Positions 30,458 through 34,976 of a stretch of 34,976 nt of DNA are shown in pieces (position 1 is the stretch's first letter; the number at the start of each line of letters is the position of its first letter). Origin of the DNA: a virus (Duplodnaviria; Heunggongvirae; Uroviricota; Caudoviricetes); the IMG/VR virus record IMGVR_UViG_2548876698_000017. The stretch is one strand, 5' to 3'. The notes beneath the pieces were generated by a model, which did not search any database, was not told where the DNA came from, and saw only the letters and a list, made by a program, of their open reading frames with translations. The position numbers were made by a program, and so were the translations under genes.

Positions 30458-32932
30458 ATGAGACAGGAATGTATACAAGCGGTCCAGCAGGCGGCGCAGC
30501 GCACGTTAACGGCGCGAGAAATACAGAACATTGAAGACCGCATTTATCGAAATATGCGCTCCATTGCTCGTGATGACCCGATGTCGTGGCGACAACTTTC
30601 CGAATCAGAACGGTTGTATCGTGCAGCACAATTGGCATCTGAAGAATTACAGCGAGAAGCGGCATTAAAGAAACGTCGTGTGGCCCTCACTATAGCCGCA
30701 CGTCAGAGATTGGATAAATTTATCAATAGCTATCAAGGGGCTGATGGGAAACTTGGCGCTCTTAACCGTACTATTGCTTTTAATGCAGACGGTAAATCGA
30801 ATTTCCTCTCTGTTGAATCCAGAACAAAAGCCACTCGTGATTATGCATTGAGTCAATTGCAGGAGGCATTTGAAGCAGTTGATCCTCGCTTTTTTGGCCT
30901 GTTTGAAGATGAAGCGGGCGTGCGTGACCTGGTATATGAAATGCGAGGGCAAAATACTGGCAATGCTAAAGCAAGAAAAGGTGCTAAGGCGTGGAGAGAA
31001 GTGACAGATCTACTGCGCCGCCGGTTTAATGATGCTGGTGGGGACATTGGCTATCTCGAAAACTGGGGGATCCCTCAACATCATTCTATGGAAAAGGTTG
31101 GGGCGGTATCAAAAGATAAATGGGTTAGCGATGTTATAGGTAAGCTGGATCGCAAATATTATACCCGAGCCGATGGACAACTGATGAACGATGCCGAGTT
31201 GTCTGCATTTCTTGGAGAGGCTTATAACACGATCGCTACTGGTGGGCTGAATAAGCTTACTGATACCGGAATGCGAATTTCCGGCGTACGTGCTAACCGT
31301 GGTAATGCATCACGACAGATACATTTCAAAGATGCAGATTCCTATCTGCAATATCAGCAACTTTATGGCGATCGCTCTCTATGGGAAATCATGGTCGGTC
31401 ACCTGGAAGGTATCAGTAAAGATATTGCGCTGGTGGAAACATATGGCCCAAACCCCGATCATGTTTTCCGCTCTCTTCTTGATCAGGTTAAGGCAGAAAC
31501 GGCAACAGCTAACCCGAGTAAAACCGGTAGCGTCGAGCGTCTGGCGAACAAAACAGAGAACTTGTACAACTTTATTTCCGGAAAAACACAGCCTGTAGCG
31601 AATCCGCACATCGCGCGATGGTCTGACAATATCCGCAACTGGCTGGTTGCCAGCAGACTCGGATCCGCGTTGCTGTCATCGTTCTCTGATCTTGGAACCA
31701 TGTATCTGTCTGCGAAGGTTACCAACCTTCCAATGAACCAGTTATTTCGCAACCAGCTTGAAGCTATGGACCCAACGAACCGTACTGAGCTTGCGCGGGC
31801 GCGCCGCGCTGGCCTGGCGATGGAATCTCTACTTGGCAGCGTTAACCGCTGGGCGATGGATAATATGGGGCCGTCTGTGTCTCGTTGGGCGGCAACGGCG
31901 GTAATGCGTGCCAGTGGGCTTACAGCATGGTCAGGTGCGCACAAGCGCGCCTATGGCGTAACCATGATGGGAAGCCTGGGAGAAGTAGTGTCACGGACAC
32001 CAGACCTTCGTAGCCTCGATGACTCTGATTTTCGTATCCTGAAAAGTAAAGGGATTACTGACACAGACTGGAGCGTATGGAAGCTGGCGCAACAGGAGGA
32101 CTGGGGGAACGGTAATAATACGATGCTGACACCGGAAAGCATTATGCGTATCCCTGATTCAGCAGTTAAACATCTTGGTGAGCCTGAACGCGTGAAATTT
32201 GAGGCAATGCGTAAACTGCTCGGTGCCGTAACTGAAGAAGTTGATATGGCTGTTATTACACCGGGAGCACGTGAGCAACTGATAACCGGTTCTGGTATTC
32301 AGCGTGGAACATGGAAAGGTGAATTAACGAGAAGTGTTTTCCTGTTTAAATCGTTCCCTATCTCGGTTGTTATGCGTCACTGGTCACGCGCTATGGGTAT
32401 GCCGTCTGCTGGTGGGCGTGCGGCATATATTGCGACGTTTATTGCCAGTACGACCATTCTTGGCGCTTTGTCGCAGCAACTTAACGACCTTGCGTCTGGT
32501 CGTAATCCTCGAGAGATGACAGGAGAAGATGCCGCAAAATTCTGGCTTGGTGCTCTACTGAAAGGTGGTGGTCTTGGCCTTTACGGTGACTTTTTATTGT
32601 CAGATCACACTAGGTACGGAAGCGGCGCGCTGGCGTCGATGCTTGGCCCGGTAGCTGGTCTGGTTGATGACGTAGTGAAGATTGCTCAGGGCATACCGTT
32701 AAATGCTGTGGAAGGGAAGAGTGAGCAGACTGGTGGTGATCTGGTGAAGCTGGGGAAAGGTTTGATGCCTGGTGCGAATCTCTGGTACTTGAAGGCGGCT
32801 CTCGATCACATGATCTTTAACCAGATGCAGGAGTATTTTTCACCAGGCTATTTGCGTAAAATGGAGCAACGTTCGAAGAAAGAGTTTAACCAGACATACT
32901 GGTGGCGACCTCAGGATGTCACTCCGCAATAA
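30458..32932 (+). CDS. Internal virion/ejection protein (large)
   Basis: 824-aa ORF; last of three consecutive large ORFs before the tailspike; assignment by synteny. Confidence 0.5.
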   Translation: MRQECIQAVQQAAQRTLTAREIQNIEDRIYRNMRSIARDDPMSWRQLSESERLYRAAQLASEELQREAALKKRRVALTIAARQRLDKFINSYQGADGKLGALNRTIAFNADGKSNFLSVESRTKATRDYALSQLQEAFEAVDPRFFGLFEDEAGVRDLVYEMRGQNTGNAKARKGAKAWREVTDLLRRRFNDAGGDIGYLENWGIPQHHSMEKVGAVSKDKWVSDVIGKLDRKYYTRADGQLMNDAELSAFLGEAYNTIATGGLNKLTDTGMRISGVRANRGNASRQIHFKDADSYLQYQQLYGDRSLWEIMVGHLEGISKDIALVETYGPNPDHVFRSLLDQVKAETATANPSKTGSVERLANKTENLYNFISGKTQPVANPHIARWSDNIRNWLVASRLGSALLSSFSDLGTMYLSAKVTNLPMNQLFRNQLEAMDPTNRTELARARRAGLAMESLLGSVNRWAMDNMGPSVSRWAATAVMRASGLTAWSGAHKRAYGVTMMGSLGEVVSRTPDLRSLDDSDFRILKSKGITDTDWSVWKLAQQEDWGNGNNTMLTPESIMRIPDSAVKHLGEPERVKFEAMRKLLGAVTEEVDMAVITPGAREQLITGSGIQRGTWKGELTRSVFLFKSFPISVVMRHWSRAMGMPSAGGRAAYIATFIASTTILGALSQQLNDLASGRNPREMTGEDAAKFWLGALLKGGGLGLYGDFLLSDHTRYGSGALASMLGPVAGLVDDVVKIAQGIPLNAVEGKSEQTGGDLVKLGKGLMPGANLWYLKAALDHMIFNQMQEYFSPGYLRKMEQRSKKEFNQTYWWRPQDVTPQ

Positions 32933-32941
32933 GGAAGTGTT

Positions 32942-33115
32942 GTGTTTTTAATTATTTTGAGTGTGATAATTTCTGGTGGATTGTTATTTATTGACCGCTA
33001 CAAATATTTTCTTAACCCTCAGACTCAAGCTATTTGCTGGTTCATCTTTGTTGTGCAGGGAGTAGTTCTTGTTGCAAGCCTTATTGAGGGGAGGCCTCTT
33101 ATTTTTACTGGGTAA
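32942..33115 (+). CDS. Possible 57-aa hydrophobic ORF, not in the supplied ORF track
   Basis: GTG at 32942 preceded by AAGGAAG; predicted product VFLIILSVIISGGLLFIDRYKYFLNPQTQAICWFIFVVQGVVLVASLIEG... has two hydrophobic segments. Short and GTG-initiated, so uncertain. Confidence 0.25.
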   Translation: MFLIILSVIISGGLLFIDRYKYFLNPQTQAICWFIFVVQGVVLVASLIEGRPLIFTG

Positions 33116-33127
33116 ATAGGTGACTAC

Positions 33128-33424
33128 ATGCAAGCTATAGGATTCATTGTTTATATCGTCGTTGGTCTTTTTCAGTTGGCAGCAATTATGGCTGGGCTTG
33201 AATCATGGTGGGGATTGCACTGGATAATTGCAGCCCCCATTGCTTTCATCGTGAGCTATATTCCATTTGTTGGAGCGATTGTTGGTATGGTTGGCGCTGT
33301 GGATGTATGGCGGTGGGAGTGGTGGCAGGCTGGCCTTCTCTTCTTTGGTGGGATCATCTTTGCTATTGTCTGCGGTGGAATGTCATCATTTTTCGAATGG
33401 CTATCATTCAGAAAAGGGACGTGA
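33128..33424 (+). CDS. Small integral membrane protein with about three hydrophobic segments (holin-like or exclusion-type moron; function unknown)
   Basis: 98-aa ORF (MQAIGFIVYIVVGLFQLAAIMAGL...WIIAAPIAFIVSYIPFVGAIVGMVGAV...LLFFGGIIFAIVCGG); lies between ejection-protein genes and the tailspike; no adjacent endolysin. Confidence 0.5.
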   Translation: MQAIGFIVYIVVGLFQLAAIMAGLESWWGLHWIIAAPIAFIVSYIPFVGAIVGMVGAVDVWRWEWWQAGLLFFGGIIFAIVCGGMSSFFEWLSFRKGT

Positions 33425-33455
33425 CATGTCACAGGCCGCTTTCGCGGCCTTTTCT

Positions 33456-33713
33456 TTATGTGGTTTGTTTTCGTAATTGTTCGGCACAATAGTCGAGATG
33501 TGTTTGCAGATCCTGCATAGACATCTGTGAGCTGGTGACGTAGTTAATCAGTGCAGTCAGTTCGGCAAGTGGGCCATCGACATTAAATCCATCCTTATCG
33601 AGATCCCGGAGTAATTTCATCAAGTGCGATCCCTCCACCAGTGACCTGACGCCTCCCGGCGTGTGAATCCTTTCGGTAAATCCGTCTTCCAGTGGATAGT
33701 GATACTGCTGCAT
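33456..33713 (-). CDS. LexA-box-associated small protein (candidate SOS-induced antirepressor or other SOS moron)
   Basis: Listed ORF 33456..33731 starts at TTG; I prefer ATG at 33713 (MQQYHYPLEDG...) with GGAGAAG RBS. A near-consensus LexA box lies 22-37 bp upstream of that ATG. Confidence 0.55.
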   Translation of the reverse strand: MQQYHYPLEDGFTERIHTPGGVRSLVEGSHLMKLLRDLDKDGFNVDGPLAELTALINYVTSSQMSMQDLQTHLDYCAEQLRKQTT

Positions 33714-33732
33714 CTTATCTTCTCCATGCAAT

Positions 33733-33752
33733 AACTGTATAAATATACAGTA
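33733..33752. promoter_or_regulatory. LexA (SOS) box AACTGTATAAATATACAGTA
   Basis: CTGT-N8-ACAG with AT-rich spacer, close to the consensus TACTGTATATATATACAGTA; 22-37 bp upstream of the preferred ATG of the 33456..33713 minus-strand ORF. Confidence 0.8.
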
Positions 33753-33789
33753 TCAAATAATTTGTTTGCTATCCAGCACGTTTTGCGAA

Positions 33790-33804
33790 TCACCTGAAAG
33801 GTAA
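33790..33804. promoter_or_regulatory. Operator-like site TCACCTGAAAGGTAA (one mismatch; ACCTGAAAGGTAATA is shared with the 16849 site)
   Basis: Between the LexA-box gene (minus) and the tailspike gene (plus). Confidence 0.45.
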
Positions 33805-33908
33805 TATCTGTTCGTATTTATGGGTTATATATCCATATGTGGTTTTTCAGGTAATAGAATAACCGGATATGCGGCGCAACGGGTGCTGCGACTATCTGGA
33901 GATTTAAC

Positions 33909-34976
33909 ATGACGGTCTCAACCGAAGTTGACCACAACGAATACACCGGTAACGGTGTTACAACGACATTCCCTTATACCTTCAGGATTTTTAAGAAGTC
34001 TGATCTGGTAGTCCAGGTTGTAGACCTGAACGATAACATCACTGTTCTGACGCTAGATACTGACTACACAGTAACCGGCGCAGGTGGGTATGTAGGTGGT
34101 AATGTAATACTGGCAACAGCTCTTGCTAATGGTTACCAGATTTCCATATCACGTGAATTGCCGGTTACGCAGGAAACGGATCTCCGTAACCAGGGTAAGT
34201 TCTTTGCTGAGGTGCATGAGGATGCGCTTGATAAGTTGACAATGTTGATTCAGCAGGTTCGTAGTTGGTTTAGCCTGGCGCTACGTAAGCCGTCATTTGC
34301 TGCTAACTATTACGACGCAATGGACAACTATATTCGTAATCTTCGTGCCCCATCCAGGCCGAAAGACGCAGCAACGAAAGATTATGTTGATATTCTTTCT
34401 GGTGCCAGCCTAAGCAGAAGCTTGAGAGTACCTGAATCGTTTATAAATGAGTTACCTGATGCGGATGGGAGAAAGAATAAAACACTGAGTTTTGATAATT
34501 CTGGATCACCGCTTCTTCTTGATCCTGAAAGTAGTGGGTTATGGGGATATTCCCTTATTGATTCGTTTCAGGATGGTGCTTCAATAACAACTAGATTTCA
34601 GGCACTTCACTGGAAACGTCCTGATGGAAATGGCGAGTACTACCGTTGGGATGGATCTTTACCAAAAGATGTTCCTGAGAATTCAACCCCTGAATCAACA
34701 GGTGGGGTTTCCCTTGGTGCCTGGGTATCTGTAGGGGATGCATCGTTGCGGAGCGACCTGATTAGTCAAGAGACAGATAAAGGCTCCTCAATAGTTACAT
34801 ATACCCCTAAATTTAATGATGCCGTCTCGATGTCGGTATATGAAAAACTTTCTGTAGATTTGGTGACACTTTCAGACTACGGATTTAAAGTTGGCAACAC
34901 CGGTTCTCAGAACAAAGCGGCGTTTCAGAAGGCTATTGATGATGCTACGTTGCCAACTGAGATTGTTATACCAGAG
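33909..34976 (+). CDS. Tailspike protein, 3'-truncated by window end
   Basis: ATG at 33909 with GGAG RBS; open to the last base (356 codons, hence absent from the ORF track). N-terminus MTVSTEVDHNEYTGNGVTTTFPYTFRIFKKSDLVVQVVDLNDN... is consistent with a podovirus tailspike head-binding adaptor domain; assignment by pattern and by position after the ejection proteins. Confidence 0.8.
   Translation, partial: MTVSTEVDHNEYTGNGVTTTFPYTFRIFKKSDLVVQVVDLNDNITVLTLDTDYTVTGAGGYVGGNVILATALANGYQISISRELPVTQETDLRNQGKFFAEVHEDALDKLTMLIQQVRSWFSLALRKPSFAANYYDAMDNYIRNLRAPSRPKDAATKDYVDILSGASLSRSLRVPESFINELPDADGRKNKTLSFDNSGSPLLLDPESSGLWGYSLIDSFQDGASITTRFQALHWKRPDGNGEYYRWDGSLPKDVPENSTPESTGGVSLGAWVSVGDASLRSDLISQETDKGSSIVTYTPKFNDAVSMSVYEKLSVDLVTLSDYGFKVGNTGSQNKAAFQKAIDDATLPTEIVIPE

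Follow-up and report, generated by a model that had tools for sequence, protein, structure and literature searches.

Two small membrane-protein genes in a variable cassette slot between the ejection-protein and tailspike genes of an epsilon15-like prophage: candidates for superinfection exclusion

Among described proteins, the closest counterpart of the genes considered here is SieA of phage P22, an inner-membrane protein with three transmembrane (TM) segments, the gene for which is located between gene 16, the last ejection gene, and the tailspike gene (PMC10883804). SieA blocks DNA injection, escape mutations are found in the ejection proteins gp16 and gp20 (PMC10883804), and the protein exists as three sequence types sharing under 30% identity (Leavitt et al. 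2024, PMC10883804). Here we analysed two small hydrophobic open reading frames (ORFs) of 57 and 98 codons, designated ORF57 and ORF98, that lie at positions 32,942 to 33,424 of the viral record IMGVR_UViG_2548876698_000017 (34,976 nt; this whole stretch is referred to as the window). By its sequence, the window is an epsilon15-like (Uetakevirus) temperate podovirus prophage. ORF57 and ORF98 very probably encode accessory inner-membrane proteins that occupy a swappable slot, their accessory nature following from the unrelated envelope proteins that close relatives carry instead. Their products are most likely non-structural and, in the reading that we tentatively prefer by analogy, they would exclude superinfecting phages at the inner membrane.

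Several features are shared with P22. ORF98, like SieA, has three predicted TM segments and an inner-membrane location (for ORF98 by prediction only), and both sieA and the cassette formed by ORF57 and ORF98 sit between the last ejection-protein gene and the tailspike gene of a temperate podovirus, near an antirepressor module. Both are also accessory, SieA being non-essential, and both slots hold divergent types. The gp17-type ejection proteins, on the other hand, are unrelated to P22 gp16 and gp20. The original prediction, made from the letters of the window, had placed the pair in the late operon between the ejection-protein genes and the tailspike gene; this position holds, with the addition that a reverse-strand gene also intervenes.

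A second point of comparison is provided by morons, extra late-operon genes as understood by Hendrix and colleagues, and by other accessory envelope genes of late operons, such as lambda bor and lom, HK97 gp15 and the Cor lipoproteins of phi80 and N15. As in these systems, the cassette adds small genes for membrane, lipoprotein or secreted products between conserved late genes, with a terminator directly downstream. Classical morons, however, carry their own promoter, whereas none was found for the cassette, the terminator of which is the shared terminator of the operon. Moreover, the slot was never empty in the loci examined and its junctions are fixed, which makes it more an allelic cassette site than a place of occasional insertion. 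Small accessory envelope proteins of late operons are a familiar kind, and the proteins of this locus are already present in databases as hypothetical products. What is new here is a cassette site whose junctions are fixed and that can hold at least six alternative occupants (the kinds counted being TM hairpins, a three-TM protein, a lipoprotein and secreted proteins), with a palindrome at its junction, together with the evidence for ORF57 as a gene that tends to be missed in annotation, and with how large the unnamed ORF98 family is and how it is linked with DUF805.

A fixed slot with alternative occupants behind the gp17-like gene

The 3' part of the window resembles phiV10, phiv142-3, HEMP4, TL-2011b and Klebsiella phage BUCT711 (genus Uetakevirus), and a 561-nt query (32900-33460) spanning both ORFs is found with 100% identity in a prophage of E. 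coli E2865 (locus L017). From 5' to 3', the genes encode a T7 gp14-family core protein, an SLT-type protein of ca. 840 aa, a 600-aa protein and an 824-aa gp17-like protein, and are followed by ORF57, ORF98, a terminator, a reverse-strand gene similar to epsilon15 gp19 and the tailspike gene; relatives also carry genes for a T7 gp14-family core protein and an SLT-domain protein upstream of gp17. The gp17-like gene is the last large gene of the late operon that encodes an internal-virion or ejection-type protein, and its TAA stop codon forms the left boundary of the cassette. Its product shares 28% identity with epsilon15-type gp17 (E 1e-106), 26% with an 833-aa Salmonella protein (E 1e-60) and 25% with an 849-aa Cronobacter protein (E 1e-38).

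In a first set of 80 IMG/VR loci, selected for a gp17 C-terminus 96-100% identical to that of the window, the distance from the gp17 TAA codon to the palindrome and terminator that close the cassette takes a few discrete values, and the left and right junctions are the same in all of these length classes. The class of ca. 170 nt holds a 46-aa two-TM hairpin of the phiV10 p21 type alone (ca. 30 loci) and that of 501-502 nt holds ORF57 and ORF98 (ca. 39 loci), while a lipoprotein gene occurs alone in a single locus (401 nt) or behind another hairpin-like ORF in eight (609 nt). No homology could be detected among the hairpin types, and a relationship of ORF57 to the p21-type or epsilon15-type hairpins was rejected by sequence comparison. 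The right junction is formed by a perfect 12-bp palindrome, GTGACATGTCAC, that precedes the terminator after p21-type, ORF57+ORF98 and lipoprotein cassettes (also in loci L032, L033, L042 and L111). ORF98 and the lipoprotein genes have their stop codons inside this palindrome, which could serve as a junction for recombination or as a protein-binding site, or belong to a tandem hairpin.

The second set comprised 80 loci selected for ORF98 itself (79-100% identity). A gp17 homologue precedes ORF98 wherever upstream sequence is present, and the first position of the cassette (slot 1) is filled by ORF57 in 65 of the 80 loci and by a 123-aa protein with a signal peptide in nine. Neither is present in the remaining six, five of which, as read, contain either a 103-aa two-TM protein or an intact 54-aa hairpin. 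More distant loci extend this picture: a 175-aa secreted protein is encoded ahead of ORF98 in the divergent locus L191, Cronobacter prophages carry an ORF98 homologue alone and only 1 nt past gp17, and in prophages of Salmonella Muenchen and Citrobacter freundii ORF57 is followed by a lipoprotein of 126-128 aa in place of ORF98. Even in a Salmonella prophage of different genome architecture, the ORF98 homologue is again found directly after a gp17 homologue. In most lineages 9-10 nt separate gp17 from the first gene of the cassette, against 1 nt in Cronobacter and 35 nt in the Salmonella prophage. Identity among ORF98 homologues is 52-61% in cases in which the neighbouring gp17 reaches only 25-26%; ORF98 therefore moves between slots and does not diverge together with its neighbour.

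Among the loci examined, every occupant that was read is targeted to the envelope. ORF98 belongs to phrog_3075, and the p21-type hairpin, the epsilon15-type hairpin and the lipoprotein each have a PHROG of their own (phrog_7892, phrog_29212 and phrog_3716 for these alternative occupants); because all four PHROGs are labelled 'unknown function', this membership is uninformative on function. The ORF57+ORF98 form occurs in 205 of 5426 complete E. coli genomes, with related prophages in ca. 460.

Two occupants deserve a separate description. The lipoprotein (126-128 aa, LVGC lipobox, phrog_3716; L029 6418-6804, L031 6279-6659, L111 3910-4290 and L042 4084-4500) replaces ORF98 in some Uetakevirus prophages of Salmonella, Citrobacter and E. 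coli, and in Salmonella and Citrobacter this slot-2 gene is sometimes preceded by a gap of 100-240 nt that could hold a promoter of its own. A fourth hairpin-type ORF of slot 1 is intact (54 aa) in L173 (4800-4964) and apparently split over two frames in L042 and L064 (3884-4072), where it may be a frameshift pseudogene or reflect a sequencing error.

The two genes, their products and the ORF98 family

ORF98 is clearly coding and, judged by its codon pattern, under strong purifying selection: it differs from Klebsiella copies by 40-41 synonymous versus 8-10 non-synonymous codon differences, and 45-46 of 52-57 differences are located at third positions. The 12-nt spacer that separates it from ORF57, ATAGGTGACTAC, is unchanged in the Klebsiella copies L006 and L018. 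Its product, with residues 1-98, matches phrog_3075 over all 98 positions of the profile (E 1.6e-54) and has 52 close homologue clusters. It is strongly hydrophobic, with a grand average of hydropathy (GRAVY) of 1.24, and its AlphaFold2 model, which has a predicted local distance difference test score of 90.9, contains helices at residues 2-28, 32-42/46-59 (with a kink at the invariant Pro46) and 65-97 that correspond to three membrane spans. Across 29 to 47 homologues, lysine and arginine are almost confined to the C-terminal tail (mean 2.5-2.9), and a three-span topology with the N-terminus out and the C-terminus in (N-out/C-in) is therefore predicted. Conserved features are G13-x-x-Q16-x-x-A19, Y-I-P46-x-x-G49-x-x-x-G53-x-x-G56-A57, W61-x-W63-x-W65 and L-F-F; they include a glycine-zipper-like face of small residues in TM2 (G49xxxG53xxG56A57) and a Trp-rich loop (W61xW63xW65).

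The shorter ORF57 product has a GRAVY of 1.31 and is modelled by AlphaFold2 as two helices (residues 2-19 and 26-49), in agreement with a hairpin made of TM1 (ca. 2-17), a basic loop D18-R-Y-K-Y and TM2 (ca. 30-48), in which lysine and arginine occur only in the loop and the C-terminal tail. The two-segment and three-segment character first ascribed to these ORFs is thus borne out with good confidence by structure prediction, with which hydropathy and charge agree, and both are real genes of the + strand.

That ORF57 is a genuine coding gene is indicated by its conservation. Its homologues, of 56-58 aa, fall into 13 clusters from Escherichia, Citrobacter, Klebsiella, Salmonella and Enterobacter, with 67-98% identity and 22 invariant alignment columns across these five genera; the frame (56-58 codons) is intact in 69 of 69 related loci and across 28 nucleotide alleles, and all homologues start with GTG or TTG behind a strong purine-rich ribosome-binding site. 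Differences concentrate at third codon positions, a pattern that is lost in both off-frames. That this frame is open only by chance within a T-rich spacer, ORF98 alone being expressed, might be suspected from its non-ATG start, from the fact that no PHROG or Pfam model matches it, and from a ratio of synonymous to non-synonymous differences of only about 1:1 (12 versus 13 against the Klebsiella copies, pointing to weaker constraint than in ORF98). It is also left uncalled by the Prokaryotic Genome Annotation Pipeline (PGAP, RefSeq) in the identical E2865 prophage and in several phage records. Set against the preserved frame with its constant ribosome-binding site, the invariant columns, the frame-specific enrichment at third positions, the predicted helical hairpin and the non-homologous hairpin ORFs that fill the same slot in other relatives, this explanation is scarcely credible. 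In the phiv142-3 record (MN187550.1 7094-7450), ORF98 is over-extended upstream to a 118-aa 'Orf12' that overlaps ORF57. A weak hairpin (7 pairs, 3 of them G-C) followed by a T-run is found inside the 3' end of ORF57 (33085-33101), just upstream of ORF98, and could be a read-through attenuator for ORF98 or a chance occurrence.

When both ORFs, together with 29 and 32 members of the family, were compared with Pfam, NCBIfam, PADLOC and PHROG, phrog_3075 was the only match, and neither ORF had one in NCBIfam. Matches to DUF4112, DUF4134 and Phage_holin_5_2 in the family scans were sub-threshold noise. Fold searches with ORF98 gave no match, and no paper naming either protein was found in the literature.

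A profile search over 1.84 billion representative proteins showed that ORF98 belongs to a large family of 749 clusters at E<=1e-3 (320 at E<=1e-10), most of which are stand-alone proteins of ca. 100 aa; no name in any source and no Pfam domain are recorded for it. Fusions of the ORF98 domain occur with DUF805 (three cases), RDD (one) and MORN repeats (one), and one protein, P0059, contains four tandem copies, which hints at an oligomeric function. Together with P0059, the proteins P0070 and P0075 were singled out for their fusion or tandem architecture. Within the Enterobacteriaceae, every ORF98 copy examined occupies the same slot behind a gp17 homologue, while distant relatives adjoin integrases or sit in umuDC-type islands, some of them with no phage genes nearby.

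DUF805 (PF05656) is a recurrent neighbour and fusion partner of the ORF98 domain, and both correspond to small multi-span membrane proteins in mobile elements; ORF98, however, does not match DUF805 and the cassette of the window has no DUF805 gene. Outside the Enterobacteriaceae, a DUF805 gene often comes directly after the ORF98-type gene: this is the case in a Mesorhizobium locus and in a soil contig (L014 7001-8024 and L015 7001-7666), and in L014, from Mesorhizobium, a DUF6804 gene called by Pfam follows as well. In Microvirga and in an alphaproteobacterial metagenome-assembled genome (L020 and L022), the gene that follows encodes a small membrane protein that is DUF6804-like by eye only. 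No functional study of DUF805 was found in the literature.

Expression signals and surrounding genes

The coordinates of the cassette and of its neighbours are collected in Table 1. Both genes are tightly spaced behind the preceding stop codon (9 nt for ORF57, 12 nt for ORF98) and each has its own ribosome-binding site; from this short spacing, expression as part of the late operon is implied. The terminator is a strong one, in which a 7-bp stem, six pairs of which are G-C, is combined with a loop of 4 nt and a T-rich tail; it is conserved in other cassette types and is annotated at the same place in phiV10. From ORF57 into the start of ORF98 the GC content is 0.40-0.43, versus ca. 0.47-0.55 in the 3' part of gp17, a drop of which the T bias of membrane-protein codons is a possible cause; the AT skew of -0.29 to -0.39 is the strong T bias expected from such codons.

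Table 1. Features of the cassette and its surroundings in the window
Feature	Position	Strand	Remarks
gp17-like gene, 824 aa	30458..32932	+	phrog_684 'virion structural protein', full length, E 0
Ribosome-binding site AAGGAAG for ORF57	32931..32937	+	Overlaps last bases of gp17 stop codon
ORF57, 57 codons	32942..33115	+	GTG start, 9 nt past gp17-like stop; cassette slot 1
Ribosome-binding site AGGTG for ORF98	33118..33122	+	Read from sequence
ORF98, 98 codons	33128..33424	+	ATG start 12 nt past ORF57 stop; cassette slot 2
Perfect 12-bp palindrome GTGACATGTCAC	33421..33432	.	Contains ORF98 stop TGA (33422-33424); conserved right junction
Intrinsic terminator, end of late ejection-protein operon	33433..33460 (33433-33450 + T-run)	+	8 nt past ORF98
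Reverse-strand epsilon15 gp19-like gene, 85-91 aa (PGAP: 85 aa, 33456-33713)	33456..33731	-	phrog_450, E 7.5e-48
Tailspike gene, start	33909..34976, runs off window	+	Open frame to window end

The reverse-strand gp19-like gene is present in nearly all of the 80 gp17-selected loci and is a context gene located outside the cassette; the C-terminal part of its product has weak similarity to the anti-repressor family phrog_1760 (E 4e-7). In relatives, genes for Bro-N antirepressors, HicAB, DUF2335 or DUF4760 are inserted between the cassette and this gene. The layout around it, with the intergenic region 33732-33908, resembles that of the P22 immI region (mnt-arc-ant) between gene 16 and gene 9. 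The homologues of the tailspike in relatives are annotated as tail fiber or right-handed beta-helix proteins.

Beyond the end of the window, the tailspike gene of the E2865 prophage is followed by gtrA and a glycosyltransferase pseudogene (L017 12670-13130); since the latter is truncated, the O-antigen-modifying module of this prophage looks decayed. In relatives, oac, gtrA/B/C or a gene of the O-antigen ligase family are found downstream of the tailspike gene. Because O-antigen modification has its genes there, the suggestion that the cassette might modify the receptor in lysogens is left unsupported.

Superinfection exclusion weighed against other functions

If ORF57 and ORF98 act in exclusion, their products would insert into the inner membrane when a cell is infected, and possibly also in the lysogen, and would there disturb the conduit that the ejection proteins of related incoming phages build across the envelope to deliver DNA. 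The outcome would be superinfection exclusion at the DNA-entry step, that is the job of P22 SieA performed from the equivalent genome position, with ORF98 probably forming a homo-oligomer through its glycine-zipper-like TM2 or acting with the variable slot-1 partner. Of the candidate functions named in the original prediction, exclusion or a block of injection is the leading one, a best guess that rests on position, topology, cassette variability and the analogy with SieA, and not on homology or expression data. The replacement of one envelope protein by another behind a constant ejection gene is the pattern that a conflict between exclusion and counter-exclusion would produce. An extended version, in which the slot would be a dedicated, recombination-prone exclusion site and the ORF98 domain a widespread conduit-blocking module whose interchangeable partners (ORF57, secreted proteins, DUF805-type proteins) set the specificity, is in our opinion unlikely.

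A number of results weigh against exclusion. Homology with SieA was rejected (hhalign probability of 0.2 for the ORF98 family profile; BLASTP E 34 for ORF57), neither ORF matches the superinfection-immunity families of Pfam, and PADLOC gave no match at E<=1 for ORF57, ORF98 or the reverse-strand gene. SieA is longer (162-164 aa), and sieA lies on the opposite strand and is expressed from the prophage by its own promoter; ORF57 and ORF98, unlike sieA, are in the direction of the late operon, and a sigma-70 consensus scan of the + strand from 32000 to 33128 detected no promoter for them. A protein made only late, as the co-directional arrangement would predict, is an unusual exclusion factor. 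In phiv142-3, Orf12 (the equivalent of ORF98) was not among the serum-upregulated prophage genes and has no reported phenotype, in a study that concerns orf6 and orf10 and not Orf12 (PMC7724020). Finally, the spread of the ORF98 domain outside phages, often beside or fused to DUF805, suggests a general membrane function.

This last point leads to the alternative that ORF98 is a protein of general membrane physiology or lysogenic conversion (a channel, a stress-related protein or a partner of DUF805) carried as phage cargo that alters the host envelope. It would account for the 749 clusters with their DUF805, RDD and MORN fusions and four-copy protein, for the DUF805 gene immediately downstream in Mesorhizobium and the soil contig and the DUF6804-like gene (by eye) downstream in Microvirga and the alphaproteobacterial genome, and for the copies found in umuDC-type islands with no nearby phage genes. 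Moreover, the neighbouring variable region of phiv142-3 includes orf10, for which a serum-resistance phenotype was reported (PMC7724020). The fixed slot behind gp17 in every Enterobacteriaceae copy examined is, however, hard to explain for generic cargo, no promoter for expression in the lysogen was detected, and the hypothesis makes no specific prediction because DUF805 and the other partners have no known function; we therefore consider it somewhat unlikely.

A role in the timing of lysis, in which ORF98 would act as holin, antiholin or pinholin-like protein and ORF57 might modulate it, is quite improbable. ORF98 does resemble class I holins of the lambda S type in its size (ca. 100 aa), three TM segments, predicted N-out/C-in topology, basic tail and glycine-zipper-like TM2, and it is probably co-transcribed with the late genes, but the resemblance is generic and does not discriminate. 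Unlike these holins, ORF98 is not adjacent to an endolysin gene and its family is widespread outside phages, with members in non-phage settings. The weak Pfam match to Phage_holin_5_2 (E 0.027) reached 15.2 bits against a cut-off of 29.2 and concerned only two of 29 family members, and hhalign found no profile similarity with the two holin-like proteins of the prophage (probability 0.4-0.5). The original prediction had noted that no endolysin gene was adjacent, which is correct within the window, since this ends inside the tailspike gene, and does not extend beyond it: in the identical E2865 prophage the lysis cassette that lies ca. 3.7 kb downstream, past the reverse-strand gene, the tailspike gene and gtrA, is complete, with two holin-like genes (Phage_holin_8 and Phage_holin_3_7), a GH19 endolysin and a spanin, and relatives too carry such a cassette after the tailspike gene. 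Close relatives that lyse normally, such as phiV10, lack ORF98, their slot being taken by a hairpin or a lipoprotein. The displaced holin, one of the candidates initially named for this locus, is thus unlikely. Still less probable is a membrane-anchored helper of morphogenesis or ejection that would handle, assemble or cooperate with gp15-gp17. The tight coupling of the first cassette gene to the end of gp17, even at ca. 25% gp17 identity, would agree with such a helper, as would the presence of some small envelope protein gene at this place in every Uetakevirus-like locus examined, yet at least six non-homologous occupants behind an essentially identical gp17 are unexpected for an essential and specific partner. 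According to the mass-spectrometry literature on the epsilon15 virion, gp18 is reportedly not a virion protein.

Whatever their function, these genes hold a lesson for annotation: ORF57, with its GTG or TTG start, is skipped by RefSeq in the identical prophage, and ORF98 is over-extended in at least one phage record. Should they be ordinary cargo, they would represent a routine pair of hypothetical membrane proteins. If superinfection exclusion is confirmed as their role, the cassette would offer a compact and tractable locus for studying how the ejection conduits of podoviruses cross the inner membrane, and it would bear on why Uetakevirus prophages differ in cross-immunity and on the role of the large, unnamed family of ORF98 membrane proteins.

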